A stretch of 64,000 nt of DNA from a virus, in the IMG/VR virus record IMGVR_UViG_3300031521_000009, one strand, 5' to 3'. The position numbers and the translations under genes were made by a program. The notes below the pieces were generated by a model. That model saw only the letters and a list, made by a program, of their open reading frames with translations, searched no databases and was not told the origin of the DNA. This document shows positions 3,618-57,000 of the stretch, piece by piece (position 1 is the first letter of the stretch; every line of letters starts with the position of its first letter).

Positions 3618-4259
3618 TTATTTTGCTATAAAATATCCACCTATTGCACCGGCGCCTAAATAAAACCAAATATCATTTTTACTCCACCATCCCGTTGAAC
3701 GTTTTAATGCTCCAATCAAATCTTTTTTTTCTTTTTGAAGAACAAGATTTTCATTTTTGGATTGTTCTGTTTCTTCTACTTGTAGAAAGTATTTTTTAGT
3801 TACATCAGTCAGACTTAATTCGGTACTTGCTAATTTTTTCTCAGTACTTTTTATGATGGTATCTTTCTGCTGCAGAGAAATATTTTTTAGTCCTACAAGA
3901 CTGTCACAATTTGCAAGAGTATGCTTAGTAGTATCGGTATTATAATCATTCTCAAACTTACTTATCTTATTTGTAAGAACTGAATTTTTGTTCTTATAAG
4001 TAGTAATCGTTTTAGTTGATTCTAAGCGATCTTTAGCCCTCAAAGTATTCACACTATCGATAGAGTCTTTTAATTGCTTACGATAAGCGCTAGTTGCTGT
4101 ATTATACCCATTACGATATGCAGATGATAGTTCTTGATTTACAATCAAGTTAGATGCTTGTTTTGATTGACATGATTTAAACCAACCGCCAATAAACAAC
4201 AAAAGCGCGATAGAAATTATCGCACTTATTATCCAGTTTTTCTTTATATATTTTATCAT
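3618..4259 (-). CDS. Putative spanin (N-terminal hydrophobic/lipobox-like segment, coiled coil, C-terminal hydrophobic tail)
   Basis: Hydrophobic N-terminus ending FKSC, heptad-rich middle, C-terminal WFYLGAGAIGGYFIAK. Last gene of the lysis cassette. Confidence 0.55.
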   Translation of the reverse strand: MIKYIKKNWIISAIISIALLLFIGGWFKSCQSKQASNLIVNQELSSAYRNGYNTATSAYRKQLKDSIDSVNTLRAKDRLESTKTITTYKNKNSVLTNKISKFENDYNTDTTKHTLANCDSLVGLKNISLQQKDTIIKSTEKKLASTELSLTDVTKKYFLQVEETEQSKNENLVLQKEKKDLIGALKRSTGWWSKNDIWFYLGAGAIGGYFIAK

Positions 4260-17424: not shown

Positions 17425-17497
17425 GGGAGTGTAGCTCAAAGGTAGAGCACAACATTTTATGTTGAGGGTGATGGTTCGAGTCCATTTGGTCCCACTA
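17425..17497 (+). tRNA. Degenerate tRNA / tRNA-like RNA (5-nt anticodon loop; Lys-TTT-like if the A-U pair opens)
   Basis: GGGAGTG-TA-GCTC AAAGGTA GAGC-A-CAACA TTTTA TGTTG-AGGGT-GATGG TTCGAGT CCATT-TGGTCCC-A-CTA. Confidence 0.7.
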
Positions 17498-24341: not shown

Positions 24342-24580
24342 AAGAAAATGAAAATAAAGATGTAATTACTCTTAATCCAGTAACTGCATTTAAGACCACA
24401 GATGGTCAGTTGTACGAAAATGATATTGATGCATTAGAACATCAAAAAGAATTGAATTTCGAGTCTGATATCATTGAATTTTCAGAAAATTATATTCCTT
24501 ATGAATCTGACAAAAGTGATTTTGTTAGATATGTAATGGAAAATAAAGATTTATTGAAAGAAATATTTGATAGATTATGA
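24338..24580 (+). CDS. Hypothetical protein
   Basis: AFKTTDGQLYE motif, overlapping starts and stops. Confidence 0.65.
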   Translation: MKENENKDVITLNPVTAFKTTDGQLYENDIDALEHQKELNFESDIIEFSENYIPYESDKSDFVRYVMENKDLLKEIFDRL

Positions 24581-25974
24581 AAAAAGATAAAGCTGTTGAT
24601 TTATTCAACCAACCTAAAGTAGTAAAACCGAAGAAAGAAAAGAAACCAAAGAAGTCAGCCGACCGGGACCCTAATGTTACTCTCAATGAAGAACAAGAAG
24701 AAGCCATTCAGCTATTACGTGCTTTTTTGAAATCTGATACTGACTTTGATTTTACTATTGAAGGTAAAGGAGGAACCGGCAAATCCTTTCTGATTCAAGA
24801 GTTATTCAAACGTAAAAAACAGAACTATGATGAATGGTATGTACCAAATACTGTAATTGGTGTATGCGTTACTCACATGGCACGTATCAATCTTATGAAG
24901 TCAATACCGAATACTACTACCTATGCTTCTGCAGCTAATCTTACAGTAATGTATGATCCTAATGGGACATTGTATTTTGTAGAGAAGTATGGTGGTAGTC
25001 AGTTCTCAGAACTTATGGGATATAAATACATCGTAGTAGATGAATGCTCTATGTTCTCAAAAGGTATGATTGCTATGCTTCGTAAGTGTTGCTCTAAAAC
25101 AGCTAAGATTATATGGCTTGGTGATTCTAATCAGTTGCCACCAATTGAAGCTGATGGAGATAATGATAGTCCTACTTTTGATTTCAAGAATAAGTATCAA
25201 CTTACCATTAAAATGCGTCAAAAGAATGAAGATCATATTGCTATTCTCGGTGATAAAATTTGTGAACATATTGCCGGTGACAAAGATATTTCTTTTCTTT
25301 CTACTATGACTCAGCAATGGGATGCAGCTAAAGGTAAAGGATATTCAATTACAACCATGGACAAGGCCATAGAAAGCTATGTAAAGAACTTTCAGGCTGG
25401 AATGGATATTCGTATCACTGCATACAGAAACAAACGTATAATCGAACACAATAAAGTAATTCGGAATATGCTTTGGGTGGAGAACTCAAATGAAATGTAT
25501 GTACCCGGCGAACTTATTGTCATGAATGAACAGTATGCACCACACATGAATATTATTGCGTACAATGGCCAATCATTCCGTATTCAAAGTCTGCATGTAG
25601 AAATGGTAGAGTTTGTTGAATGCTTTGTCATATCAGTTCCGAAAGTTGGAAGAAAACCAAAATCAAAAGAAACAGTGCAATTGCTTGTTCCTACTGAGAA
25701 TGGTTATCCTCTTTACAAAAATCATTTGGATAAGCTGAAACGTACTGCAATAAAAACGCATGAGTGGTCCGAACACCAAGCTTTCAAAGGAAAGTTTGCC
25801 AATATCTCGTATGGCTATGCTATGAATAACTATAAGATACAAGGTAGTACCATAAAGGGATGCTATGTAGATTTAAGTGATATCATGAGTGTAAAGCCTA
25901 TCTCAAATAAACGTAAGTTACAAGCCTTTTATGTAGGAGTATCGCGCGCTACTCACTTTTTAGCAATATTTTAA
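24577..25974 (+). CDS. SF1B helicase (Dda/RecD-like)
   Basis: GKGGTGKS, VVDECSM, LGDSNQLPPI, MRQ, YKIQGST, FYVGVSRA. Confidence 0.9.
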   Translation: MKKDKAVDLFNQPKVVKPKKEKKPKKSADRDPNVTLNEEQEEAIQLLRAFLKSDTDFDFTIEGKGGTGKSFLIQELFKRKKQNYDEWYVPNTVIGVCVTHMARINLMKSIPNTTTYASAANLTVMYDPNGTLYFVEKYGGSQFSELMGYKYIVVDECSMFSKGMIAMLRKCCSKTAKIIWLGDSNQLPPIEADGDNDSPTFDFKNKYQLTIKMRQKNEDHIAILGDKICEHIAGDKDISFLSTMTQQWDAAKGKGYSITTMDKAIESYVKNFQAGMDIRITAYRNKRIIEHNKVIRNMLWVENSNEMYVPGELIVMNEQYAPHMNIIAYNGQSFRIQSLHVEMVEFVECFVISVPKVGRKPKSKETVQLLVPTENGYPLYKNHLDKLKRTAIKTHEWSEHQAFKGKFANISYGYAMNNYKIQGSTIKGCYVDLSDIMSVKPISNKRKLQAFYVGVSRATHFLAIF

Positions 25975-27095: not shown

Positions 27096-27593
27096 ATGGC
27101 AAAAATTTGTAAACACGAAACATGTACCATGCCCGTTTTTTCTCACCAATTCTGCAAAAACCATCAGTATTTACGTACTGATGATAAAGCACAGAAAGTA
27201 AGAACAGCAATAACTATTTCAATCAATACGAAGAGTAAAGCTGTAAAACCTAAGTTTCGGCAGCCGACTGGTGAACTTTCAATTTTTAAAGAAGTATGGA
27301 ATGAACGCCCACATGTTTCAGAACTAAGTGGTGATAAACTATATTTCTTTGATATCAATAATTTTCATCATTTGCTTACTAAGAAAACATATAAGAAATT
27401 TCGGTTGTACAAACCAAATATCATTCTTCTTACAAAGAGTGAACACTTTCAGATACATAATGTAGCTCAAAGTGTGCTTGTATCACAAGATAGCAGATGG
27501 CAGAAAGTATTTGATAAATATCAACAACTAAAAGAGAATTACAACTATGGCCGAGAAACGGAATTACAACAGAAAACCACCATTACCGGCTAA
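27096..27593 (+). CDS. NinG/HNH-like nuclease
   Basis: N-terminal C..C...C..H and WNERPHVSELSG...FHHLLTK...NIILLT..EH. Confidence 0.6.
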   Translation: MAKICKHETCTMPVFSHQFCKNHQYLRTDDKAQKVRTAITISINTKSKAVKPKFRQPTGELSIFKEVWNERPHVSELSGDKLYFFDINNFHHLLTKKTYKKFRLYKPNIILLTKSEHFQIHNVAQSVLVSQDSRWQKVFDKYQQLKENYNYGRETELQQKTTITG

Positions 27594-29052
27594 TGATTTT
27601 GGTAAGCTCCCACCGCAAGATATTGAATTTGAAAAAGCAATTCTTTCAACAGTCATTAATTATCCTGATAATTTGGGTTTTGTGCTTTCTATCATTAAAC
27701 CTCAATGTCTTTATAAAGTAACGCATCAAAATATACTAGAAACATTAATGGGAATGTCTGAACAAGAGATTCCCATTGATAATACTACTCTTGTGCATGC
27801 TTTACGTAAAAATGAAATGATTGATGATGTAGGTGGTCCATATGCAATAATAATACTTGCTGGTGAACCTCATTCACAACAGAACCTGGAATACTATTGC
27901 TATGTGATATTTGAAATGTATGTTCGACGTACTATGATTGAACTGTTCTCAAATGAAATCAATAACTTATATAAATACGATATAGATATTAAAGAAATCT
28001 ATGAACGTGTTTACGAAGAGTTAGAGAAGATATTTGAGAACTTCAATGATAAACAGATTAAGCACATGAAGAACTCGGTTGATAAGGCTATTAATGAAAT
28101 TCAGAACTACTCTAGTGGTAAAGATATTTCATACCTAAGAACTGGGTTTAAATTGCTTGATGAACATGTATATCTTGCTCCTAAGTTTATCCTTGGTATT
28201 GCAGCATCGCGTGGTGCCGGTAAAACCAGATTCCTTATTGAACTTATGCGTTCGATATTTGAAATCAATCCGGAAGATGTAGCTGCTCTATGGTATTCAA
28301 TGGAAGATAGCGATACAAAGATTATTAGACTGTTCGCTGCAAAGAAAACAGGACTCACTGAGGCACAAATGCAAGGTAAAGGGTACAAACTATCCAATGA
28401 CGAATTAAAGTCCGTTACAGGAGAGATAAACAAGTTTTCTAAGTATGATATAGATTTTGTAAATGAGCAAGAAACAATGTCAACCATATCGCGAACTTTC
28501 AATCGATTCATAAAGAAAAGAGAAAAGAAAGTGTGTTTTCTGATTATTGACAATATCATGCTTATTGATGATTTGTATAACAGCCCAGCCGGTTCCAACC
28601 AGATTCAAATTGAAGATAAAGTTGCGGCCAGTATTCGTGCTATCGTAAACAATGCCGATAAGAAAGGACATAAAGCTATTGTGATATTCTTGCACCACAT
28701 GACAAAAGAAATGGAGAGTAAGAACAATTTCGAAGAAGCATATCGTCCTAAGCTTAGTCATATGAAAGGAACCACTCGTTTTGCAGATGTTGCTAATGGT
28801 ATTATTCTATTGAATAATCCGGGCATGCATAAAGACCTTATAAAAAAGCATTCTTCTCTTCCGGATATCAACTGTATCAATTCAAATGGTACTTCTATGT
28901 TCGTAAAAAGAGAAAAGCTTTTAAAGAATATGCTTATTGCTGAGGTGGCAAAGAATAGAGATGGTGATATGTCTGACGACTCTAAAGCTGTCCAACGATG
29001 GATAGTTGATTTCGGTACTATGAAGTTTAATGAATTAAATACTCAAAAATAA
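27547..29052 (+). CDS. dnaB: Replicative DNA helicase DnaB
   Basis: Bacteroidota-like N-terminus GKLPPQDIEFEKAIL, Walker A ASRGAGKT, SMED, IIDN, RPKLSHMKGT, VAKNRDG. Confidence 0.88.
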   Translation: MAEKRNYNRKPPLPANDFGKLPPQDIEFEKAILSTVINYPDNLGFVLSIIKPQCLYKVTHQNILETLMGMSEQEIPIDNTTLVHALRKNEMIDDVGGPYAIIILAGEPHSQQNLEYYCYVIFEMYVRRTMIELFSNEINNLYKYDIDIKEIYERVYEELEKIFENFNDKQIKHMKNSVDKAINEIQNYSSGKDISYLRTGFKLLDEHVYLAPKFILGIAASRGAGKTRFLIELMRSIFEINPEDVAALWYSMEDSDTKIIRLFAAKKTGLTEAQMQGKGYKLSNDELKSVTGEINKFSKYDIDFVNEQETMSTISRTFNRFIKKREKKVCFLIIDNIMLIDDLYNSPAGSNQIQIEDKVAASIRAIVNNADKKGHKAIVIFLHHMTKEMESKNNFEEAYRPKLSHMKGTTRFADVANGIILLNNPGMHKDLIKKHSSLPDINCINSNGTSMFVKREKLLKNMLIAEVAKNRDGDMSDDSKAVQRWIVDFGTMKFNELNTQK

Positions 29053-31361: not shown

Positions 31362-31967
31362 ATGAAAGACGTAAATATTGAAAATGCTTTTATAGTATTG
31401 AAAGGTGATCATATGTCAAATGACATTGAGCTTGGTACTATTTTTCTTGAATGCAAATGTGATCGATACAAATTGAATGTTCTTTCTTATGAACGTAAAT
31501 TCAAAGATGGAAATACTATTTTTGAATTAGATGTTGAAAATCCAAATGATTTTGTAGCTGATGTATTTAGAAACAATGAAGTATCAGTTAGTTATTGGAC
31601 TAAGAATGCAACCGGCCCATTTATTATCGGTATGATGCCAGTTATTTTATTTGATGGAACTATTCATTATCTTCCATTCAATCAATTTGCAGAAGAGAAG
31701 CTATATATGGCTCCCGGCAATCATTTATGGATGGCATTGACAATAGTAAAATACAAAAGCTGTACTGCTACTTTTGGTGAAGGACCTGGTTGGGCGACTA
31801 TCTACAGTATCGATAGCTATCAAGAAGGACAAGGACATGCTCAGGAGCTACTTATTCAAGCAAAAGCATATTACTCCTTACTTGAGAAAGAAATGGCTTC
31901 TACAGTAGCTTTAAACTCTACTATGGAACATATCTTGGAAAAACTTTCTATTAAAGAGTACAAATAA
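31362..31967 (+). CDS. Protein with C-terminal GNAT acetyltransferase-like domain
   Basis: Likely start 31362. IYSIDSYQEGQGHAQELL resembles the acetyl-CoA-binding motif A. Confidence 0.55.
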   Translation: MKDVNIENAFIVLKGDHMSNDIELGTIFLECKCDRYKLNVLSYERKFKDGNTIFELDVENPNDFVADVFRNNEVSVSYWTKNATGPFIIGMMPVILFDGTIHYLPFNQFAEEKLYMAPGNHLWMALTIVKYKSCTATFGEGPGWATIYSIDSYQEGQGHAQELLIQAKAYYSLLEKEMASTVALNSTMEHILEKLSIKEYK

Positions 31968-32014
31968 TTAGCGAATTGTTTGGTAAACTTATAGAATTGT
32001 CTTTTCTTTGTATC

Positions 32015-32400
32015 GTTATTAATGGTAGATACAAGGACATATAAAAGAAATTAAGGCTATTCTCGGCTATGCTGAAAGCCTTTGAAACCTCTGACATCGT
32101 ATCTACCAGGATTTGTCAGGGGTTTCTCTTTTATAGTCTATCGGTGTATAATGTACGTTTGGCTATAATCGTAAATCTTCTAAAAGGAAATGGTGTGCGA
32201 TAAGAAGAATGGAGCCAGATTAATCCATGTACCAGTGATACAACACTGAAAGTAATCAAAGTAGAGCATTTGTATTATTACTCTGCCCTGAAAGCGAACG
32301 ACCGACTGCCGGACTGCCTACGCTTAGAAAGGATAACCCTTTCACAACATTTTAATATGGTTGTGGGTAAGGGGTACTTATATCCTTTCTTCTCACTCCC
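32015..32400 (+). ncRNA. Large structured non-coding RNA candidate
   Basis: ORF-free gap of about 520 nt, downstream of a TTTG-N20-TTTCTTTG promoter-like site. Contains many long stems and a 10-bp pseudoknot. Confidence 0.65.
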
Positions 32401-32485
32401 TCCTTTAAAACTGTCTAATTATATACTTATTTAATATATAATATATCTATAAGTATAAGTTTATAATAATATATAATAGTATACG

Positions 32486-33151
32486 TTGAAAACTTTTTAT
32501 TTCTTTACTGATGGTGCATCAGAACCTACAAATCCAGGGCCTTCCGCTAGTGCTTTTTGTGAACTCTCCGATTATCACGATAACCGTGAATTATATTCTG
32601 AATCTATTTTTCTTGGATATGCTACAAATAATATTGCTGAATTAAAAGCAATAGATATTTTATTTGATTATATCATTCTCAATTCTAATAAATATCTTTC
32701 TTTAGAAAATATCATTTATGTTTATGCTGACAGTCAATATGCACTTGATTGTATTCGTAAATGGTATCCTGAATGGGTAAGAAAGAATAAATTGAAAGAT
32801 AAAAAGAATTTAGAACTAATTAAAAGCATATACATAAAATATATTCAGATAACTGCATTATCAAACATAAAACTTGATTGGGTAAAAGCTCATAATGGTC
32901 ATTGGGGTAATGAAAGAGCTGATGAGTTATGCGTAAAACAGTGTTTAGACAATGCAGGAAAGATTATTGTATCTAAAACTATGCAATCACCTACTGAACA
33001 ATTTAATGCTCTTATACGTGAATCAAATATGCTTAATCAATCTATCAATAATAATATAAAGACATTAAAATCTTTGTATGAAGAAATTGTTGGTGTAAAT
33101 ATAGATGAATACTTAATTCTATCAATGATAAAAGAAAAGAATATATTATGA
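32486..33151 (+). CDS. rnhA: Ribonuclease HI
   Basis: FTDGA..NPGP, TNNIAEL, ADSQY, WVKAHNGHWGNERADEL. TTG start. Confidence 0.93.
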   Translation: MKTFYFFTDGASEPTNPGPSASAFCELSDYHDNRELYSESIFLGYATNNIAELKAIDILFDYIILNSNKYLSLENIIYVYADSQYALDCIRKWYPEWVRKNKLKDKKNLELIKSIYIKYIQITALSNIKLDWVKAHNGHWGNERADELCVKQCLDNAGKIIVSKTMQSPTEQFNALIRESNMLNQSINNNIKTLKSLYEEIVGVNIDEYLILSMIKEKNIL

Positions 33152-34791
33152 ATGAAATTTCTAAAATTTATTTATCAAAAATTATTGCTTCCAATTTAAA
33201 TCCTAGGAAAGTAATAGATCAAAACTCTATAATTGAGTTAGCACAAAGTATTAAATCAGTAGGATTATTGCAACCTATTACTGTACGACTTCTTACAGAA
33301 GATAATCATTATGAAATTATAATGGGATATCGTCGATTTTGTGCATGTAAATATCTTGAAATGGAAACAATGCCATGTATCATTGTAGAAATGAATGATG
33401 AAGAAGCACTGGATGCAATGATCATTGAGAACTTACAACGCCAGAATATCGAACCTATGGATGAAGCGCGGGCATTTGCTGACCTAAATAACAAAGGTTG
33501 GACATTTGCTGATATTGCTGTAAAAGTTGGTAAGCCGGTTCAATTTGTAATGCATAGAATACGTTTACTTGAGCTTATTGCTGAGTTTGTAAAAATGTTT
33601 GATGAAAATGAATTATCTATTTCTCATGCTTATGAATTATGTAAGCTTGACAAAGATGTTCAGTTAGATATTTTCAAAACTCGTTACAGTGAAACAGCTG
33701 GTGATTACTATCGGTGGAATGACCTTAATCTAAAAGATTTGAAATCGAAAATACAAAATCTTGCAAAGAACTTAGACAATGCTTCTTTTAGCTTAGCTGA
33801 GTGTATTACTTGTCAGTTTTGTACTTCTAGTCATGGTTCTTTATTCCCGGACTACAAAATCAATTCTTGTACTAATGGCTTCTGTTATGATGAAAAAAGC
33901 TTTGAACATGGTATGAACAATATCATTCTTGCACATGAAGAAGATACTACTATTATGATTCGTTCATTAGGTACAAGTAATCGAGTTCTTGATAAGCTGA
34001 AAGAATTGAATATACCAGTTGTAGTGTTCAGTACCGATGAATACGATTTTGAGCATGATAATAGCGATGATCTATCCTTTCATGATAAAATGGTCAAGAA
34101 AGGATTTGAACTCGTGTATGGGCTTGATATATGGTCTGGTGGTGATAAGATATTCTATGTAAAAGCAAAGATTACCAAAAAAGATATCGCTGCTGCAGGA
34201 ACAGTTCATCCGGAACTTGTAAAGCTTGACAAAGACCTTGTTCGTAAAGAGGAAATCAAAGAGGAAAAGATTAATGCTGATCTTAGAAGTCTTATTTCCA
34301 GTAGTGATTATCGTGAGATAAGTACACCACTTCTTCCTATCGAAGAAACTGCTTTTATGGCTGTAGTATTCTATATGGCTTCCAATAGTAAATTAAAAGA
34401 GATAAGAGCAAAATTCAAGAAAGATTTGTCTTACATGGAAAACATACAAAACATGTTGCCCGAGGATATTATTACATTGAAACGGTGCTTTATAAAACAA
34501 TGTATTGTTGGAACAGAAGTAACTCATGATGCCGATGTTCAGAATATCCTTTCATCTATTTCGAATGTATTCTATTCAGATAAGTTTGGGGAGATTGTCA
34601 AAGAACATACGGCCACATGTAACAAACGTAAAGATCGTATTGCTATTCGTAAACAAGTTATTCTTGATGAAATTAATCCGGTAAAGAAAGAAGTTGTTGA
34701 GAAAGAAAAGAAAGTACCTACAAAAGAAAAAGAAGTGCCGGTTGTAGTAGAAGAAAATGAATATGTCAAATTTGGTAACATAGGAGAATAA
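33148..34791 (+). CDS. parB: ParB/RepB/Spo0J family protein
   Basis: NPRK..ELAQSIKSVGLLQPITVR..GYRRFCA..IIENLQR, plus an HTH. Confidence 0.88.
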   Translation: MNEISKIYLSKIIASNLNPRKVIDQNSIIELAQSIKSVGLLQPITVRLLTEDNHYEIIMGYRRFCACKYLEMETMPCIIVEMNDEEALDAMIIENLQRQNIEPMDEARAFADLNNKGWTFADIAVKVGKPVQFVMHRIRLLELIAEFVKMFDENELSISHAYELCKLDKDVQLDIFKTRYSETAGDYYRWNDLNLKDLKSKIQNLAKNLDNASFSLAECITCQFCTSSHGSLFPDYKINSCTNGFCYDEKSFEHGMNNIILAHEEDTTIMIRSLGTSNRVLDKLKELNIPVVVFSTDEYDFEHDNSDDLSFHDKMVKKGFELVYGLDIWSGGDKIFYVKAKITKKDIAAAGTVHPELVKLDKDLVRKEEIKEEKINADLRSLISSSDYREISTPLLPIEETAFMAVVFYMASNSKLKEIRAKFKKDLSYMENIQNMLPEDIITLKRCFIKQCIVGTEVTHDADVQNILSSISNVFYSDKFGEIVKEHTATCNKRKDRIAIRKQVILDEINPVKKEVVEKEKKVPTKEKEVPVVVEENEYVKFGNIGE

Positions 34792-37845: not shown

Positions 37846-38187
37846 ATGGATTTTAATCATGCAATTAAAACTTATCCAATGATTCAAAGAATTGGATGGA
37901 ATGGTAAAGGACTATTTGTATTTCAACAAGTACCTTCTGAGATACCAATAGCTGTTGTTCCGAAAATGCAATCATTACCTGAAGCAGTAAAATGTGAATT
38001 TACTCGTCGCTATGATTTAGCTAGTGATAATGGGAATAAAATGATGCAAAATAATAGCCCATTTTTGACTATTCGTTACAACTATCAATTAGCAATAGTT
38101 GATAAAGAAAACAACATCAATGGATGGGCGCCTTCTGTTTCTGATGCATTGGCCGAAGATTGGATTGAATATATACCGGAGGTTTAA
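37846..38187 (+). CDS. DUF2829 / Tad2-like signal-sponge protein
   Basis: MDF..AI...RIGWNGKGLFV...GWAPSVSDALAEDW. Confidence 0.8.
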   Translation: MDFNHAIKTYPMIQRIGWNGKGLFVFQQVPSEIPIAVVPKMQSLPEAVKCEFTRRYDLASDNGNKMMQNNSPFLTIRYNYQLAIVDKENNINGWAPSVSDALAEDWIEYIPEV

Positions 38188-46336: not shown

Positions 46337-46377
46337 AAGCCATCTTTCCTATTCGTAGGTTAGATGGCTTATTTTTT
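46337..46377. terminator. Probable bidirectional terminator between convergent blocks
   Basis: AAGCCATCT..CCTA-TTCG-TAGG..AGATGGCTT, flanked by an A-rich run and a T run. Confidence 0.8.
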
Positions 46378-49300
46378 ACTTCTTACTTTCAAGATCGTCA
46401 ACTTTTTTCTGTAATCGCTTTGCTCGTTTATCAGCAACTTCCTGATAGTGTTCTTTCAGTTCCTGAGCATTCATATCGTTTATTTTCTTACGTGCTGTCC
46501 AGTCTTGAAGCATATTGTCATTATCTCCTAACAATTCCATAAACCATATAGCATCATATACCGGTCCAGTATAAGCAAATAAACGTGTCCACTTCTTCTG
46601 TCCTGTCATAAGCCCCATAATATTGTCTATAAGACCTGACATTGGAACGATATTGCTCTTTATGGAGTCATAGTTCGAATAAGCCATAAGCTCGCTGTAA
46701 AGCCATGAAAGCTTATCCTTATCTCTATCACTCATTCCATTTGCTGCAAGCATGTTTATACCTACAAGAATAGAAGTAAAGAAAGTAGCACTAATCATTG
46801 ACCGGGCAAGATTATATTTTGTCATGGGGTCCATCTCTTCCAAATCAGAAAACTTCATATCTTTAGTACGAACAACTTTTACCACATCAGAAAGATAGTT
46901 CCACATAGAAGCAAGTGTTCCCTCTATCATAATCTGTTTTTTGATAGTTTCCCATTCATTGTTTTCATTCAGTTCTGCAGTAACATCAGCACCATACGAT
47001 GTCATTCTTCTACTACCAACTAAATTGAATATCTTTCCTGGCAAGAAAGTACGGAACTGAGTAAAGATACGACCCGAGAATGTATTCCCTAAAAGCATCT
47101 TCTGATATTCATCCATAGCACCAATAATGTACTTATCAGCATACCATTTGAAACGAGTGTTTACTTCTTCAAAATCATAACCCACTTCCATATTGTCAGT
47201 ATCTTTTATAATACCTTGGTCAATCATCTGTTTTGTCTTTCTGTCCCAGATAGCTTGTTCTTTACCACTGATTATCTTACCCTCTTTATCGAAGTAACGA
47301 GTATCTTTCAACTTATCATATTTCAATGTATCAGTTTCCTTATCATAGGTATGAGCTTCATAAGAACCATCATGTATCATAAATCCAACCATGGTAGTTA
47401 GTCGAGCCGCGATATCTGAGTAATAGTTACCAATATGTGCCAGCTGTGATTGAAAAACGTTCTTATCAATGTTTGTTGTAAAGAACGATTCAATAGCTTC
47501 CATCTCACTACCATTCACTAAACCAAACTTCTTACCTAGCGCCATAACTTTTTTATGGTTCATAGCAAGTTCAAGATTTGCTTTAGTCATATCTTCCGGA
47601 GTAGGAAAGTTCAATCGTTTATTTTCATCAGTAAACATATTGGCCGCTTTAGTAGACAATGCTTCTATGATTTGTGACTGAGTATTGAAATAAGCAGAAC
47701 GTACCCATACAAGTGGACGATAACCAAGAGCCATGAAAGAATAGGCATTAGTGATATTCTTTACAAAAGCTGCAGTCTTATCAGTAGGATCATCTTGTGA
47801 TTTTCCTTTGATAATTCTATCAGAATATTCTTTTAAAAATTCATTGGTATATTTTGTTTGGATATTATACTCTTCTTTCAATATTTGATTCCATTGAATA
47901 GCTTTATTCATAGCCGGGATCATCCTATTCTCAATCTCAATAGTACGAATGCTATCATCCACAAACATGCTAAATACATATTCTAAGTTCATAGTCTTTT
48001 TACCATAGAATTTTAAATCACCTTTGTATCTGTTAGGTGTAGTACTATCTGTTGGCATAAGTCCCATTCGTATCATCTGTTGCTGTATAGACTGCTGAGA
48101 TCGAAACCGTGAGTTCATATGTTGATAATCATCTGAAATCAAATCATTGTCAATAGTCACATCTTCTATTCCGGCCATAAACTCAGAAATAGCTATTTGA
48201 TCCCATCCTTTACGAACCATCTCTTTATACTTCTTATCACGGAATAACTCTTGTTTAGTCTTTTCCAAAACAGGAATATGACCAGGAACCATTTTACTCA
48301 ATAACTCATTACGCAACTCTTCTTCTTTCTTTGGTGTTGACCGGCGCGAGTTATCATGCATTGCATTGGCAAGATAGCGTTCTTTTACTGTTTCAAGTAT
48401 AAGGTCGGCCAGAGCAATATCCTCAGTAGTAAGTCCTGCTTTTTTAGCTTCATCGACATTGTAAGACCCATACAATTGATTGTTTAGAATAATAGGAACA
48501 ATATCACCTTTCTTATTCTTATCACTATCCTCAGTAAGCAATAACTCTCCTTTTTTAAATAAGTGACCAAATACTTTCTCGGGTTGATTGCCAAGAATGT
48601 TTAATGACATACCACGTGATTCAAGTGATTTAGTCAGTGCATCATTAAACTTCGCTTTGTAGTCATTCAGCTGATTGACAATAATAGATTTTGTTGCTTC
48701 GGCTTCTACTGAATAGTATTGAAGGATATCAGATTTGATATTGTGGATATTGGTAAACTTCAACCAAGTCTTATTGATATCTTTTACTTGTCCGTTATTG
48801 ATACCTACACCTTGTTTGAACCATACAAGATACTGAGTAATCAATTTGTGTTCTGGATTGTTTATCCAATTCTTATCTTTTATTTCTATTGCCCGGGCGC
48901 GGTCACTGAGTAATTTGAAATGTTCATAACTGTTGAAGTTTTCAGTCATAGCATCACGTTGTACTTCATCCATATTCAATGATTGATAGTAAGCAGCATA
49001 ATACGTTTCTAGCTTATCTCTCCAACTCTGGTATATACTATCTTCATTCCATGCCTTATCATCGCTTAGAAGTTCTTGAAACCATTTATACGATAATGAT
49101 TTTTCATCCATGACAGCTTGTATTGATGGAAGAGTAAACAAATCTCTACCATTGGCCATAGCTTGATGAAGAGTAGAAAGCATTCGCGGTTGAATAGAAG
49201 TACCATTGAAACCAATAACACCATAGCGACGTAAGGTAAGTTTCTTGTTATTCTCCTGAGCAAGTTTATTCATGCCGGCAATAGTTACCCCAAGTAATAC

Positions 49301-51061
49301 TTGTCGTATATCTCCCTGGCTATTGCTCATATTGAACTTACGACCTTTTTCTGATTTTTCATGGCCAAGATTAGCAGCAAGTGATTTCTTATGTGAGTCC
49401 ATAAGATTGTCTTGAAAACCAAGAACGGATCCAGTCAAATCAATAAGTGATACATCAACTTTACTGTCTGACATGGTATGTACTATTACGATAGGATTAA
49501 AACCAACAATAGCATCATTGTATAATGGTGCCAGCGCTTGTACGTTTGTCATATCCCGATAGTTCATAACAGTAGTCATAGGTTCGTTTATACCAAGCAA
49601 TTTGATAGACCGAACAATGTTTTCAACTACAGTATCAGAGAAACCATATTCAGAAAAAGTATCTTGAATAAGTGTTTCAAGAGGAACAGAAGTATCTGAT
49701 ATATGCTTATTAAGTATTTCGACAATATTGTTATTGAATGAGTTCATCATTTGCTGACGACGTACTAGCATTTCATTCTTTATACTAGCCATAACTTCAT
49801 TGTCCGGCATACTATTAGGAAAGCTATACATCTTACCATAGTCAACATAGATACGATCTTTATCTCTTTGCCAAAGATTCGCGAATATGTTTTCTACCAT
49901 TTTTTCTTTTGCTTCCGGATTTTCAAAGTTGAGTTGTCCGTACTCTTCATTATTGATAAGAAATGGTACTACCTCAGCGACATTCTCAATAGGTTTGAAT
50001 CCCATATCAGCTTCATAAAAACCATCACTGTAATAGTTCTTCAATAACTGTTCTACCTCTACCGGACCAAAGTCAATAATCTTTCTACCATTAAGAATAT
50101 CTTCTGTCAATGCATTAAAAATATCATTCAATGTACCTTTTTCAAAGTTTACATTGTCGAGTGCTGAGTTAGCAGTTATCTTACTAGATACTAGATTACC
50201 TATTGAAGAGAAAAGACTGCTAACAATATCATATACTTTTCTGAATATATCTTTTGATCGAGTAGAAGATACATAACGATTGTTACGAGCAAGGAACTTG
50301 TTTACTTCTTTCTGTGAAGTCATACCACTTACTGCAGCAGCATATTCATATAGTTGGTGAACTTCGTCAAGCTTCCAATACTTTTTACGTATCGAATCCA
50401 TGATTTCTTTATTGTCAGCAATTGAATCACGTACTTTACTCATGAACTGATTATACTTAAATCCATCAGTCATTTCAAGAGCATGAATCCATACGTGTGT
50501 AAGCTCATGAATAGGAGTATCAACATTCATTGATTGAGTATTCAAGTGTATTCCGGTAGCATCTACCCACGCGCGATCAGTAGCATGTTCAGTATTACGT
50601 GTTGTTTCAAAACTTTCAACTTGTATTTTAAATCCCGGGACCGCTTTCTCTAATGCATGAATGAATGAATTAGTCTTTTCTGCTGTTGCAATAAACTCTT
50701 TACGCAGCTTATAGTCTTTAATACCTTCCGTTTCTGCCACTTTCTCCCCTATCTGAATAGATTTACCCGACTTAGTTATAATGTTGTCATTTTCGTCAAG
50801 TGAGAGCTTTGTATGTTCGGTTGAAGTAACACCACTTAGAACAGCAAACTTTTCAGTAAACATATTTGCGCGATACTTTACTGCTTTATCTATACCATAG
50901 CGTTCCACTAACTGCTGGTATATTAAAGATGGATTCCCATCAGCCGTTAAGCTGACAGGATTACCATTGTTCTTTGCATAGATAGTATGTGCTTTACCAT
51001 CTCCGACGACTGCTGATAAGGCTTTGTATTCCTTATCATTTTTGTTAGGACATTTACTCAT
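46376..51061 (-). CDS. Large virion/ejection protein with zincin-like HExxH motif
   Basis: 1561 aa. MSKCPNKN..EYK.L start like crAss giant proteins, TPIHELTHVW, downstream of the RNAP gene. Confidence 0.75.
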   Translation of the reverse strand: MSKCPNKNDKEYKALSAVVGDGKAHTIYAKNNGNPVSLTADGNPSLIYQQLVERYGIDKAVKYRANMFTEKFAVLSGVTSTEHTKLSLDENDNIITKSGKSIQIGEKVAETEGIKDYKLRKEFIATAEKTNSFIHALEKAVPGFKIQVESFETTRNTEHATDRAWVDATGIHLNTQSMNVDTPIHELTHVWIHALEMTDGFKYNQFMSKVRDSIADNKEIMDSIRKKYWKLDEVHQLYEYAAAVSGMTSQKEVNKFLARNNRYVSSTRSKDIFRKVYDIVSSLFSSIGNLVSSKITANSALDNVNFEKGTLNDIFNALTEDILNGRKIIDFGPVEVEQLLKNYYSDGFYEADMGFKPIENVAEVVPFLINNEEYGQLNFENPEAKEKMVENIFANLWQRDKDRIYVDYGKMYSFPNSMPDNEVMASIKNEMLVRRQQMMNSFNNNIVEILNKHISDTSVPLETLIQDTFSEYGFSDTVVENIVRSIKLLGINEPMTTVMNYRDMTNVQALAPLYNDAIVGFNPIVIVHTMSDSKVDVSLIDLTGSVLGFQDNLMDSHKKSLAANLGHEKSEKGRKFNMSNSQGDIRQVLLGVTIAGMNKLAQENNKKLTLRRYGVIGFNGTSIQPRMLSTLHQAMANGRDLFTLPSIQAVMDEKSLSYKWFQELLSDDKAWNEDSIYQSWRDKLETYYAAYYQSLNMDEVQRDAMTENFNSYEHFKLLSDRARAIEIKDKNWINNPEHKLITQYLVWFKQGVGINNGQVKDINKTWLKFTNIHNIKSDILQYYSVEAEATKSIIVNQLNDYKAKFNDALTKSLESRGMSLNILGNQPEKVFGHLFKKGELLLTEDSDKNKKGDIVPIILNNQLYGSYNVDEAKKAGLTTEDIALADLILETVKERYLANAMHDNSRRSTPKKEEELRNELLSKMVPGHIPVLEKTKQELFRDKKYKEMVRKGWDQIAISEFMAGIEDVTIDNDLISDDYQHMNSRFRSQQSIQQQMIRMGLMPTDSTTPNRYKGDLKFYGKKTMNLEYVFSMFVDDSIRTIEIENRMIPAMNKAIQWNQILKEEYNIQTKYTNEFLKEYSDRIIKGKSQDDPTDKTAAFVKNITNAYSFMALGYRPLVWVRSAYFNTQSQIIEALSTKAANMFTDENKRLNFPTPEDMTKANLELAMNHKKVMALGKKFGLVNGSEMEAIESFFTTNIDKNVFQSQLAHIGNYYSDIAARLTTMVGFMIHDGSYEAHTYDKETDTLKYDKLKDTRYFDKEGKIISGKEQAIWDRKTKQMIDQGIIKDTDNMEVGYDFEEVNTRFKWYADKYIIGAMDEYQKMLLGNTFSGRIFTQFRTFLPGKIFNLVGSRRMTSYGADVTAELNENNEWETIKKQIMIEGTLASMWNYLSDVVKVVRTKDMKFSDLEEMDPMTKYNLARSMISATFFTSILVGINMLAANGMSDRDKDKLSWLYSELMAYSNYDSIKSNIVPMSGLIDNIMGLMTGQKKWTRLFAYTGPVYDAIWFMELLGDNDNMLQDWTARKKINDMNAQELKEHYQEVADKRAKRLQKKVDDLESKK

Positions 51062-51069
51062 AGAATTGA

Positions 51070-54000
51070 TTATTTACATTTATTTTTTTCATCATTATTA
51101 TCTGACTCATTATCTTGTGCCGAAATACCAATAGCGGGTTCACCATTTGCAACTTCTTTCTTACTATCTTTCTTTGCTATCTCAGTATCGAATAGTTCAA
51201 GTGATCCTTCCAATGTATTCAACATTTCAGAACGTTTACTTTCTGTTCCTTTCATTTCAGAACGTACTGCCGGATTAATCATTTCAACAATAGCACTACG
51301 AGAAACTTTTCCATAAGTAGTAATCCCTACTGACATATCTTCGACTTCTTTATTGAAAGTAGTTTTCTGATTAGCTAAGAAATCAGTTGATGAAATCTTA
51401 TTAGTAAGTTGTTCTACCATGTTCTTTCCCTGACTACTGATATAAGCCAATGCACGTGCTTGTACCAATGCTTTTACTATCAATGATTGTTTGAAATTGA
51501 GTTGTGCCATAGCAATCTTTATTTGCTTAATCTCATTGGCATTCTTCTCAGTTTCCACAACTTGAACATCATCAACTAAATTACGAATGTATTTATTGAT
51601 TTTGTTTCTTCTGTGTTCCTTACTTTGATAGTTCTTTAAGTCCCAAGGAAAGTTCTTTGTCTTTTCTCCGATAGTACTTAATACTTTGTATTTATAAGCA
51701 TCAAGAACTTCATTGATAGAATTGAACTTATTCTTGTTATCAAAGATTGATATACGTGTTTCAACACCATCATTGGTAAGAGTATTTATGTTTAATTGAC
51801 TTAAGAACATATTTCCTTTTACTTTGTATTCCATTGGTTTTGTAACATCATTCTCAGTAAGAGAAATAGCGTTTGGATCAAAGATAGAATGTTGTAAAGT
51901 TCCTTCTTTTAGTTGAATCCTATTGTTTCTTCTTTGAGTATCTATTTCCTTTTGTTCCATACGATAAGTTATATCTGAATCGTTAGCAAGACGATATTCA
52001 AAATTAGTTCCTTTTACTTTAATAACACGTACTAATTTTCCACTTCTTGTATATAGAAATTGTCCTTCCGATACCCATGCACGAGAACCTTGATGCAATA
52101 TCAAATCATTGTTATCCCGATTAGCAAGACTAAGATTGTATTCTTCTTCCGGTGTAGTCTGAAATGAACGTAATTCAGAAGTCATATTCTCGCCGGCCAT
52201 AGTAGACATACCTAAAGAAGTAATGTTTCTAAATACTTCATAAGCATTGTTCTCATTCAGCTTCAAATTTATTCTATGCCCGGTGTTTACTTTCTCACCA
52301 TCTATAGTTTTTGTTTCAAACTGATAAGCATACTTAGGACTATTTTCATTAACTACTGATTTTGGACTTAGATACTGTGCAAACTCAGGTTGTAATCCAA
52401 GATAGTCATAGATACGTTCACGAATGTCTGAATTGAATGTAACGGACTTTCTGTACTTGTTTGGTACAAGACTATCAAGACCTAGAGAAGAGCGCAATTC
52501 AGCGTATGTATCGTTATACACTTTGCTTATTGGTCCTTTGTAGAAATCAACACCTATTACTTGAAGTAAACTACCTTGACGATATGACATTCTATTGGCA
52601 ATAATCTCATAGTTGATAAGCATTTCTTTGTATTCTTTTGGAAGAGAATTAAAGTAGTCTTTCAACTGAGCGACGCGCTGTTCTGTCATTTCTTTAGTAT
52701 TGACATCAAGTAATAACTTCACATCAAACTTACCACCAATAGTAAATAACTTGATAAGAGGATTCGATGCAAATCTTATCCACTCTTCTGCCGGCAACTC
52801 ACTTTGTACTGTCTTATTCAAATAATCAATGTTATCAGAATGCTCAACAATATCCATCATGAATTGTGGGAAGTTCTTTACAAATGATTGTCTATCAAAA
52901 AGACTTGATAAATCTAAGTTTTGTGATGGGTTTTCATAAGTATTACCAACGGCTTGATAGATATACTGACCTTTCATAATAGCACTTTCTCCAATAGTAG
53001 CATAGTACTTGTCAAGCATGATATCGTTTATCGCGGTACTTACTGCAGCGACTTCACCACCGAAGTTCAATGTTGTTCTATTCTGTTTTTTCAAGAATGA
53101 TTTTACAATATCTTTTTCAATAGCATCATTATCGGCCATAAATGACTGCTTAGTGATAAGTTCCTGACGATACAGTTCTTGCAAGATATAATCAATCTGA
53201 GGTAAGTTCTTGATAAGTTTACCCATATTGATTTCATTCGCTACCAATTGCTCTTGAGAGAACATAAAAGCTTTTTTCTTTTCGTCTTGCTCTTTATTGT
53301 AAGCATCATTATTCATAGTATAGTAAGCCATGTGCTTAGCGACATTCATATCACTTGCTGGATTAGAATTGTATTCTTGCAATGACATACCAATTGTTTG
53401 TTGTACGGTATTAATCATTGTTCTGAAATCCTTATCCAATGAAGGAATACCATTACGCATTCCCATGATAGTAGAAAGACGATACAAAGCATCTGCAGTA
53501 ACGCTGAGCTTAGGAACCATTTTCATATATCGTAAACCTTGTATGTCAGTCCGGGCAATGTTTATGTTTGCACGAGAACGTACCATTAGTTTAAGTTCAG
53601 AAGCAGCTTCCGGAGAAAGATTATCCAACTCTTTAATATCAAAAGTTGAAGCATCAGTTTTGTCAAAAACAACTTTATTGTTCTTGTAACTAAATAGATT
53701 TTCATCATCAAACCCATTGTCTTTTTTCCACTGCTCAAGTGATTGTTCTTTTTCCGATCCAGTAAAGTCATAAGGACTGTTTTTAAAGGCTTCTTTGTTG
53801 TTTTTGTAATAAGAACTTAGTTCTTTCATTAGAATATCATCAACTGACTGTTGCAATAACGCGTCGGTTGTTTCCAGTTCCATTGAATACTTTTCAGTAT
53901 CGTGAACATTGCTTTTCCATGATAGACCTTTTGATTCTAACCACTCAGATACATTACTATTATTGAAATGCTCAATACGAGAAGCTATCTTTTCTACTTC

Positions 54001-57000
54001 TGTTGAGGCCATCTTCCAAAGGTTGAAGTCAGCACTCTTAGTCATGATAGAAGTCTTTCCAGAATAAGCATGGAAGAGATTACGTATGTTTTTATTATTG
54101 AAGAAATCATACACTTCACTATTGTTCATACCATTCAATTTTAGCACTGCAAGAATGTTGATACCAACCGGACTAATTGCGTAGTTCGCGAATGTATTGT
54201 TCTTAGCATTATCTAATGCACCTTGACCCCATGTTCCTAACTCAATAACAAATCCATTCAGACCGGTCTTGATTCTACCTTTAGGTGCATTCTCATTGAT
54301 AAAATTTTGTATTCCAGAATGGGTACCAGTTTCTACAAACTTATTTACTGAGCTTGAAATAATGATAGACGATACTGTCAATGAATTGGCAAGAATACCA
54401 ATAGCATCAGCACCGGCTTTATTTCTTGAATATGATTCATAGATAGAACGAATAGAGTTATTCTGTAGGTTGTCTACCAATTTCTCTTTTTGTTTCATCA
54501 CTTCATTAATCTTATCCAATGAAGAGGTAAGGAATAATGACTCTTGATTGCCACTATGAAGCGTAATAGCGTTACGTAATGCATTCATTTTGTTTCTATG
54601 ACCATCTGCACCTTTTTGAACAATGTGTCCTTTAGAATCAAGAGAATTAGAATACATTGTCAATGCATCAATATCATAATCGGAGTCATTACGCAAAGTC
54701 ATACCCGTTGGGATATAAACCACGTTACCACCATTATGGAACATTGCTGTTTTGAATACACCACCCGATCCTAAAAACGTAGCCGGAACACGTGATAAGA
54801 ATGAAGTATTTGATTCTTCAAAATCTTTCAACAACTGTTGTGCTTCGGTAAGAACTTGTTCAAGTATTTCGCCACTACCCATTAGTGCAGCAATTACTTT
54901 GTCCGGATTAGCCAGGTCAGTAGATTGCAGTTCCATTGAATTGATAGCTTCTAAGATTGATTCATTAGTAGCATTTACTTCTGATTGTAATTCATCAGTA
55001 GTCATTTCTCTGTTACTATCAATCAAGTTAGCAATACGTTTACTGATAAAACGCTTTCCATCATTATCAACAGAAGGATTTAGAAGTTCATCAACATACG
55101 TTTCTATCTTCAAGTTTTTGATAGCTTTACGTATCATTGGTGAGTCTACAAATGCACTCCATTGGTTTAATGACATATCAGCATCATCAGATAGACCGGC
55201 CATTAATTTATTATACAAATTAGAACTGTCTAATGCAATTCTTTCAGTACCCAAATTGATATGTTGAATATCAATAAGTGATTCAGAACTTCTATGACCA
55301 TACACCTTAGCATATATGTTTGGCATGGAGATATGACCAACAGTAGTTTTACCATCAACGATATTCATATCTTGTAATCGTTGCATAGTAAATCCTGCAG
55401 CAGCGAGTTCTTGATTCATAGCATCACTATGATATTCATCAAATGAATAGTCACGATAATTGGTACCAGGTCTTAATTCATTGATAGCATCATTACGAGA
55501 ATATATCTTACCATCGCGTACAAATTCCTCTAAGTACTCACCAACAGTCTGTGTAAGACGAATACCTTTTGTTCTTGCCTGAATAGATTGATTGGCCATG
55601 TTACGGTATGACTGCAATACTTTAGAACGCATCATAGGCAACTGCATAGAAACATCCATATCACTGAATAATTCAATGAATGCCATATCTTGTCCGGAAG
55701 TACGTAAGCTGTTTACTACTCGGTCGCGCATAAAGTCCATCAATTGTTTTATCGCTGGATCGATTTCTGATTTTTGTTGTTCGGTAAGTGTAGCAACATC
55801 ATATTTGAACCAATCAATATTTTTGAACTGTTTTGCAGCTTCTACATTACCATACTTAGATATTGATTCTTCAAGTTCTTTACGCAATGCTGTTTGAAGT
55901 CCTTGTTTGTTCTCCATATAAGCACTGTAAAGACTTGATATCTCAGAATTATTACTAACACCTAAACCGGTAGCATCTTGTTGTGATGGCGCCGCCTGTA
56001 GTTTTGCATTGATATCAGTATCTTGTGATGGATTCATGACTATTTTAGTTTTGGTATTATCCACTACATCCATGTTTAATGGTTGACTGTAATCAAAGTC
56101 ATTTAAGGCATCGTAAGTATTCACTGAGGTAATTGAACCTTTCTGTGTAGATATTGGCGCCATGAAAGCCACAATGCTATTGTACATGTGTCCGGCACGT
56201 TCTATACCATCAGGATTGATAGTAATTCTATCTTGATAGTATTGTTGGTTATCTATCCAACCCATCATATCTACAATAATTTCATCAAAGTCTTTTCTAT
56301 TATTGACATCATCATACAATTCTTTGAACTTATCAGTAAAGGATAGTTTGTTCTCAACAAATGATTCTTCTCCAACCCGAGCAACTAACTGACGATCTGT
56401 TTCAGTAAGCATACGCATAAACATGTTCCGATAGTAGGTATGTTGCATATCAAAACCAGTGATAACCTTATCTCCACGCTTAATCTGTGAATAAGTACCA
56501 TCAGCTCTACGGAAATTGGTAAGACCTTTATACATGGAAGCATTACCAATGACAGTCTTAGTACCACCAATAGAGTTTAATGTCTGCAAGTAATGGAATG
56601 GATTAATAGTTATCTGACCATTCTCAGGTTCTATTTCATTTCCATCAGTACTAAAGACTTTTTCACCATTAATCATCTGCCATGTATTACCACCATTGAT
56701 CATATTGTCACGATAGAATACAATAGGACTTTCTGCAGTCAATGTTGGAGTATGTAGTTGGTACTTGACATTATTCTGTATAACTTCTTTCGTTCCTTGG
56801 GTAAGTACGCTTTGTGCCGGTGTATGAATAGGGCCGTTACGTTTTACCTTATCAAGATAGTTCTTGAAAGAGAATGGGTTCAATGAAAAATCATCAATAT
56901 GATTATTGGCAAATAGAGTAGCCATATAGAAACCGAACATAGGCTGATTGAAACGTATCTCTGACTTTTCAAGTTGTTGATAATACGGATTCTTATCAGT

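Follow-up and report, generated by a model that had tools for sequence, protein, structure and literature searches.

Fast-evolving complementary loops on a conserved scaffold are a known feature of plasmid control RNAs, both in the countertranscript attenuation of pT181, pIP501 and pAMbeta1 and in the loop specificity of ColE1 RNA I and RNA II. In phages, IsrK is a small RNA that is made together with its target from one promoter and whose terminator is partly read through, and the P4 CI RNA is summarised likewise, as a small RNA sharing a single promoter with its target (PMC4825925). The element described here lies on the plus strand of a phage-like metagenomic sequence with a GC content of about 33% (IMG/VR record IMGVR_UViG_3300031521_000009), and "the window" refers to the whole 64,000-nt stretch that was analysed. 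The predicted RNA matches no catalogued family, and what is new about it, as read from the sequences, is a 5′ end paired to the loop of a terminator-like hairpin by way of a replaceable address sequence. To our knowledge, RNA-based regulation is almost undescribed for phages of the Bacteroidota.

The locus sits in the replication/partition region of a large, uncultivated phage, between the helicase genes and the genes for RNase H and ParB. Upstream are genes for a Dda-like helicase (24577-25974) and a DnaB helicase (27547-29052), the latter followed by several genes with no assigned function. The last of these (31362-31967, plus strand) encodes a 201-aa protein that had no Pfam or PHROG match, and 518 nt separate its end at 31967 from the start of the RNase HI gene (32486-33151, plus strand), which uses a TTG start codon. 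A ParB-like gene (33148-34791, plus strand) comes next and is the constant downstream gene in all arrangements, with a methylase-like gene after it. Directly before the RNase H start codon lies an AT-rich tract (32413-32485, plus strand), which is most simply taken as the unstructured region where translation of a Bacteroidota-type gene begins. TAnnTTTG motifs also precede other genes in the window, such as TACATTTG after 22289. TTTG/TAnnTTTG is the promoter consensus of Bacteroides and Flavobacterium, and these motifs point to a host that is probably a member of the Bacteroidota. Proteins identical to those of the window occur on contigs of up to 172 kb, and no DNA-level similarity to 31900-32500 was found among GenBank phages by blastn. 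Elsewhere in the window, the minus strand has a pair of very large open reading frames (4280 aa, 51070-63912, and 1561 aa, 46376-51061). A gene for a Tad2-like protein (PF11195) is kept downstream of the locus in the window (37846-38187) and in the related loci L028 (8714-9055) and L029 (9321-9647), the last of which additionally encodes RyR-domain and YunG-like proteins; all three kinds of gene are possible anti-defence cargo.

Shortly after the 201-aa gene is a predicted Bacteroidota-type promoter (31979-32010, plus strand), consisting of a -33 TTTG (31979-31982), a 20-nt spacer, and the -7-like box TTTCTTTG (32003-32010). All relatives of the locus, which fall into the types A to D described below, share the same order: the end of a gene, TTTGG, a spacer, and then TTTCTTTG. 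Across types A, B, C, and D, neither the two boxes nor the distance between them changes. The 19-20-nt spacer differs from one close relative to another, and in the distant relative L055 it has been replaced entirely. Invariant boxes and spacing around a replaced spacer are the pattern expected of a promoter and not of a transcribed structure, so that the promoter-proximal placement proposed in the first-pass annotation, made from the sequence of this DNA by itself, is supported by the relatives. Transcription would start at about 32015-32019, and the 5′ strand of the pseudoknot begins 12-13 nt past the -7 box in four of four types. A second candidate promoter at TACGTTTG (32156-32163) was not adopted, as L055 has a different base at the first position of the box (AACGTTTG) and the stretch lies within predicted helices.

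Downstream of the promoter, the predicted RNA begins with the leader strand of a pseudoknot, TGGTAGATAC (32023-32032), followed by the 5′ strand of an outer stem, P1 (32035-32048), made of GGAC (32035-32038), a bulged A (32039), and the A-rich TATAAAAGA (32040-32048). P1 encloses two hairpins. The first (P2, 32053-32082) has a conserved outer stem, AAGGC/GCCTT, within AAGGCT (32053-32058) and AGCCTT (32077-32082), and a hypervariable inner stem-loop, which in the window reads TCGGC-tat-GCTGA (32063-32075). The second (P3, 32084-32126) pairs GAAACCTCTGACA (32084-32096) with TGTCAGGGGTTTC (32114-32126) in 13 bp, one of them U.G, with a stability of -20.7 kcal/mol. Its loop of 17 nt (32097-32113) carries GTATCTACCA (32099-32108), the exact reverse complement of the leader TGGTAGATAC. 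A U-rich tract directly after hairpin 2, TCTTTTATA (32127-32135), together with GTCT (32136-32139), forms the 3′ strand of P1 (32127-32139). All of these features are on the plus strand.

Minimum free energy folding reproduces the outer stem and both hairpins, at -41.8 kcal/mol (z -4.65) and, for the sequence 32011-32145, at -43.8 kcal/mol (z -4.81); 0 of 200 shuffled sequences folded equally well. The plus strand folds 10-12 kcal/mol more stably than the minus strand and, together with the conserved U.G and G.U pairs, this identifies the plus strand as the folded one. One fold contained an alternative pairing of the leader with GTCTATC, which is not preserved in type B. When the loop was shuffled 20,000 times, a complement to the leader as long as the 10 nt of type A arose only 4-6 times. 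Among 204 T-tailed hairpins screened on both strands of the window, no other had a long stem and a loop complementary to its own upstream leader; the other 10-nt match of that screen, at 53779, is a low-complexity sequence on a 7-bp stem within a gene. Thus, every pairing drawn in the first-pass annotation exists, with a fold z-score of about -4.7 and a leader/loop complement rarer than chance. Of the three-way junction that it described, P1 and both hairpins appear in the minimum free energy fold, while P1 is invariant and therefore neither supported nor contradicted by covariation. In all, the element is very probably a real structure, a predicted three-way junction of P1, hairpin 1, and hairpin 2 with a pseudoknot between the leader and the loop of hairpin 2.

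No catalogued RNA family accounts for this structure. Across the whole window, Rfam 15 cmscan at the gathering score returned only a tRNA at 17425-17494. Relaxing the threshold to E ≤ 10 on 31800-32600 gave nothing but noise, as did E ≤ 1 on five related loci, and ARAGORN placed no tRNA or tmRNA gene in 31900-32500. The IsrK, P4 CI, and P1-P7 C4 families had no Rfam match at either the gathering score or E ≤ 10, and neither did the known self-cleaving ribozymes (hammerhead, twister, twister-sister, pistol, hatchet, and HDV-like) at E ≤ 10 on 31800-32600. The proposal of a new cis-regulatory or catalytic motif, for which an Rfam search had been named as a check, therefore stands insofar as no family matched even at E ≤ 10, but nothing points to catalysis.

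In order to compare the element across phages, related loci were gathered by way of the upstream 201-aa protein, one metagenome scan, and ParB homologues. Seven distinct versions of the sequence after the promoter were present among close relatives, and an eighth came from the more distant phage L055, whose ParB and RNase H proteins are 39% and 71% identical to those of the window. Four types of leader/loop pair stand behind the one promoter. Type A (the window, which equals L005, with L001, L002, which equals L003, and L023, which equals L025) pairs TGGTAGATAC with GTATCTACCA over 10 bp. Type B, represented by 11 identical loci such as L011, pairs GGCAAAGAG with CTCTTTGCC over 9 bp; type C (L004, L024, and L028-L031) pairs GGAGTGAC with GTCACTCC over 8 bp; and type D (L055 and L056) pairs GGAGAGATAC(A) with (T)GTATCTCTCC over 10-11 bp. 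In loop shuffles (n = 20,000), the observed complement was reached 5 times for type D, 14-21 times for type B, and 48 times for type C. In type A, 2 loop residues lie 5′ and 5 lie 3′ of the pseudoknot strand, compared with 4 and 8 in type B and about 3-5 and 0-2 in type C. A full intramolecular pseudoknot may be strained in type C, given how few residues remain on the 3′ side.

The pseudoknot changes between types while its pairing is kept, as expected of an H-type (a-b-a′-b′) pseudoknot. Between types A and D, three leader/loop pairs differ by in-register compensatory change (U-A to G-C, G-C to A-U, and U-A to G-C), and in type B every position is replaced relative to type A, yet the two strands form a perfect 9-bp complement. 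Over the same comparison of A with B, P1 has no changes and hairpin 2 has a single changed pair. In alignment A12, which holds 41 pairs, every cell (100%) is paired, and sliding the partners lowers this to 41-52%. Compensatory change is seen in 3 of the 10 pseudoknot pairs and in 1 pair of hairpin 2, and all of the pseudoknot variation comes from the four types. This is the covariation for which the first-pass annotation had proposed looking. Hairpin 2 changes from G-C to A-U in type B and from C-G to A-U in type D, and each of the six sequences that have the scaffold, the sixth being L055, has its own version of the inner stem of hairpin 1, which pairs in every case. In these six sequences the 9-bp core of P1 is invariant, with only one-sided, pairing-keeping changes in L055 (A to G, giving U.G, and G.U to A-U) and a single A to G in its 3′ strand, so P1 is plausible and unproven by covariation. 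The leaders of types C and D share TTTCTTTGCAGTGT followed by GGAG, and their loops read AATGT...CTCC. This visible homology makes type C a diverged relative and not an unrelated element, and it escapes the covariance model built here (R1). Replacement, and not stepwise change, could be the origin of types B and C.

Searches further afield added little to this group. Scans of IMG/VR with the RNase H query and with a first hairpin pattern found nothing, and scans with the scaffold pattern found only three type B contigs. Eleven further loci from an 18-mer scaffold scan were set aside as chance hits because none matched the covariance model. At 23 distant IMG/VR ParB loci, neither a screen for leader/loop pairs nor model R1 found such an element. 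A 19-mer from the invariant linker downstream of P1 matched three Flavobacteriaceae genomes, two of them (L057 and L059) in apparent coding regions; three matches is about the number expected by chance, and Rfam found nothing in the three loci, so they give no evidence for a homologue in the host. The RNA family is so far known from a small group of uncultivated phages only.

The 5′ element is the first module of a conserved structured region of about 400 nt upstream of the RNase H and ParB genes. The remainder, a 3′ structured domain (32140-32412, plus strand), contains an invariant linker (32140-32175), covarying hairpins, and a pyrimidine tract. Of the 86 pairs predicted for the whole 402-nt RNA, 17 show compensatory changes, with 15 of the 17 in the 3′ domain. 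For example, one hairpin at about 32243-32258 changes from CAGTG/CACTG to AGATG/CATCT, and another at about 32271-32296 from GTAGAG/CTCTGC to GTAGTAT/ATGCTAC and GTAATAC/GTATTGC; a long hairpin at about 32326-32390 is also among those that covary. Small open reading frames were rejected as a reading of this region. By eye, a candidate ATG at 32069 falls within the variable portion of hairpin 1 and is missing in relatives, and the short frames in the 3′ domain differ in both frame and length between types. In the window, the element of the first-pass annotation is the 5′ part of a larger structured region and not free-standing.

The modules of this region have been shuffled. Between the window and L055, DNA identity is 89% over the RNA region, 91% over the 3′ domain, 78% over RNase H, and 65% over ParB, while comparing the window with L011 gives 91% for ParB, 77% for the 3′ domain, and 69% for RNase H. 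A type A 5′ module is joined to a type A 3′ domain in the window and L001 and to a type B 3′ domain in L002 and L023, and L011 has both modules of type B. The 3′ domain is co-inherited with RNase H, the two travelling as a cassette, and L001 is without RNase H. Genes for GIY-YIG (NUMOD) homing endonucleases flank the locus in L004 (584-1303), L023 (2180-2995), L025 (436-1212), and L055 (1768-2481 and 7771-8418). These flanking genes, together with the cassette-like shuffling of promoter, leader, 3′ domain, and RNase H, suggest that the locus is likely a recombination hot spot.

Type C phages, which are common and have contigs that reach 172 kb, have just the promoter and about 100 nt of RNA module, with no 3′ domain, AT tract, or RNase H. 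Here the leader pairs with the loop of a canonical terminator that takes the place of hairpin 2, with a GC-rich 13-bp stem followed by TTTTTT. At most 26 nt after this terminator begins a gene for a 259-261-aa protein, followed by a 106-aa gene and then ParB. The 259-aa gene of L028 (2826-3605) gave only sub-threshold hints of PCI and HTH_36 domains, and its 106-aa gene (3650-3970) only sub-threshold hints of DUF559 and HNH-like domains. Another type C locus, L024, has a different non-coding stretch of about 490 nt (2880-3368) after the leader terminator, ending in its own terminator-like hairpin (CCCAACCGG...CTGGTTGGGATTTTTT) just before ParB, and this stretch had no Rfam match.

We prefer, tentatively, to read the module as a leader or attenuator RNA close to its promoter, with the rapidly evolving leader/loop pair serving as a specificity code. 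Plus-strand RNA would be made from the promoter at 31979-32010, with 32011-32143 as its first module, and hairpin 2 together with the U-rich 3′ strand of P1 would serve as a conditional intrinsic terminator. In one outcome, polymerase would stop and release an RNA of about 115 nt with its 5′ end held by the pseudoknot and its 3′ end by P1; in the other, it would continue into the 3′ structured domain and the genes for RNase H, ParB, and the methylase. A type-specific address would be provided by the leader/loop pair, with the loop of the finished short RNA pairing in trans with nascent leaders of the same type and so setting the ratio of stopping to read-through. Of these steps, we infer the termination, the short isoform, and the action in trans.

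Several observations argue for this reading. The homologous hairpin of type C is a textbook terminator, which suggests that hairpin 2 and its U tract are a conditional one, and the type C gene that begins so soon after it has no space for a separate promoter, so that read-through must occur there. The A-tract and U-tract of P1 are frozen while other helices change, suggesting a constraint beyond pairing, and the pseudoknot turns over far faster than the near-invariant scaffold, which is why we read it as a type-specific address. Against an attenuator, the loop of hairpin 2 is 17-21 nt in types A, B, and D, atypical for a terminator, and the terminator scan, whose definition leaves out a 17-nt loop, did not list the window's 13-bp stem of -20.7 kcal/mol with its following TCTTTTATA. 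Furthermore, P1 extends beyond the U tract through GTCT (32136-32139) and the strand of the next helix begins 1 nt later, features no less compatible with an RNA that continues than with one that ends there. Neither arm of hairpin 2 is a partner of the leader, which pairs with the loop, so there is no classical antiterminator logic, and a search for an antiterminator pairing that competes with the terminator stem found none. No conserved third complementary site, comparable to seqC of P4, was found downstream of the leader and loop.

One extension of the attenuator reading is that the leader/loop pair is an intermolecular recognition code, the loop of one RNA, be it a short leader RNA or a whole transcript, pairing only with leaders of co-infecting genomes of the same type. 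We consider this unlikely. If true, it would amount to sense-strand RNA incompatibility, immunity, or dosage counting in large Bacteroidota phages or, alternatively, could lead to head-to-tail RNA multimers, and the types would be expected to diversify under pressure to escape cross-talk.

The main rival to an attenuator or address function, which we regard as a real possibility while doubting it, is that the element has a purely architectural role as the 5′ domain of a single long RNA, extending for about 400 nt from 32015 to about 32410 and either non-coding or a long 5′ untranslated region of RNase H-ParB. Such an RNA might act as a protein scaffold, in RNA stability, or in the regulation of RNase H. 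Hairpin 2 would then be a plain helix, P3, with no terminator, and the pseudoknot a tertiary clamp. The many covarying helices of the 3′ region, contiguous with P1, are what such an RNA would have, as is an RNA region more conserved between the window and L055 than RNase H or ParB. The large loop of hairpin 2 is unusual for a terminator, and in the window there is no U-run terminator after the 3′ domain. Yet type C has the 5′ module and lacks the 3′ domain, its equivalent hairpin being unmistakably a terminator, and the module recombines independently, as seen in L002 and L023 with their type A 5′ and type B 3′ modules. The architectural role also leaves unexplained why a hypervariable pseudoknot lies beside a frozen P1 and P3.

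That the module is instead a stand-alone small RNA of about 115 nt ending at hairpin 2, which acts on phage or host mRNAs while the leader/loop pairing protects it or masks its seed, appears unlikely. It has its own promoter, a terminator-like end, a compact form, and both ends paired, and matches to TGGTAGATAC with at most one mismatch are in excess in the window, at 12 against a shuffle mean of 3.7, with 0 of 100 shuffles reaching 12. These near-matches (among them 26016, 38230, and 57483), however, have no consistent position or strand relative to genes, their excess may be an effect of codon usage, and no target is known. The close spacing of the type C downstream gene, without room for its own promoter, also means that read-through must matter.

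Another way to explain the setting is an RNA-primed origin of the ColE1-like or T4-like kind, in which the promoter transcript is processed at the AT-rich tract by the adjacent RNase H and primes DNA synthesis. The locus does sit in the replication module between the helicases and RNase H/ParB, and it combines a long structured RNA, an AT-rich tract, and an RNase HI gene, with the 3′ domain and RNase H inherited together. This explanation is weakened by close type C relatives (ParB 85-87% identical), which keep the leader module and lack the 3′ domain, the AT tract, and RNase H. RNase H is absent from L001 as well, the locus has no skew inflection, and the AT tract, as noted above, has a simpler explanation in translation initiation. 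We therefore consider such an origin improbable.

The inverted repeats could also be thought to act as DNA, either as paired protein-binding sites or as single-stranded hairpins that vary together with the specificity of a protein, since repeats that change jointly are also expected of dimeric DNA binders and a ParB-like gene is close by. This is very improbable: the 3′ copy always falls exactly in the loop of a covarying hairpin, the conserved G.U pairs would be A.C mismatches on the other strand, where the fold is also much poorer, and types A, B, and C share ParB at 86-89% identity, its N-terminal/HTH region being largely invariant, whereas their repeats differ completely. A new class of self-cleaving ribozyme, which a compact three-way junction with a pseudoknot and invariant junction nucleotides in a phage might be taken to suggest, is scarcely credible, as no Rfam ribozyme family matched even at E ≤ 10, type C retains the leader/loop pairing and not the junction, and no mark of a cleavage site is visible in the sequence.

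Whichever function holds, this is a covariation-supported structured RNA family that is absent from the catalogues and ties the 5′ end of its transcript to a terminator-like loop. If the attenuator reading is correct and the module sets the balance of termination and read-through, it would represent a new attenuator logic in which a pseudoknot to the terminator loop takes the place of competing stems. If it acts in trans, it would parallel plasmid and P4-type RNA immunity while being encoded on the sense strand. With a length of about 120 nt and natural allelic variants, the system is well suited to in-vitro transcription and probing.

Compared with described systems, the element shares a stable stem (-20.7 kcal/mol) with Rho-independent terminators, as well as a U-rich tail that pairs with an upstream A-rich run, and in type C the terminator is canonical. 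Unlike an ordinary one, it has a 17-21-nt loop paired to the 5′ leader and a hairpin (hairpin 1) inserted between the A-tract and the stem, and hairpin 2 lies about 110 nt after the promoter and not at the end of a gene. The ZTP, fluoride, and preQ1 riboswitches likewise occupy a 5′ leader, and in them 5′ sequence forms a long-range pseudoknot close to an expression-platform hairpin. Their ligand pockets are conserved, whereas here the pseudoknot sequence is unconserved and lies in the loop of the terminator, without competing with its stem. The element differs from a ColE1-like origin in that the primer-transcript region, AT tract, and RNase H are not conserved together, as type C and L001 show.

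The closer parallels are with RNA regulators of plasmids and phages. A promoter-proximal leader with a terminator, upstream of replication and partition genes and with the pattern of an incompatibility determinant, is also what plasmid countertranscript systems have, although both partners here are on the sense strand. No CAAAnnTA, the minus-strand form of TAnnTTTG, occurs within the element in types A-D, a consensus-only and hence weak test for an antisense promoter, and a generic sigma-70 scan gave one minus-strand match, at 32492-32463, outside the element. The P4 CI RNA, with its seqA, seqB, and seqC, and IsrK of Gifsy-1 resemble the element in having regulator and target in the same leader under one promoter in a phage, with complementary segments on one strand, and partial read-through of a terminator is a feature of IsrK. 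Unlike in these two systems, the complementary partner here is the loop of the terminator-like hairpin itself, no processing signal is known, and the host is probably a member of the Bacteroidota and not an enterobacterium. Unlike in P4 CI, no second, downstream target site was found, and a single leader/loop pair is present in all types. By analogy, the element possibly acts in trans as IsrK and the P4 CI RNA do, and overall it would appear to work most like the leader attenuators and the same-transcript riboregulators of phages.
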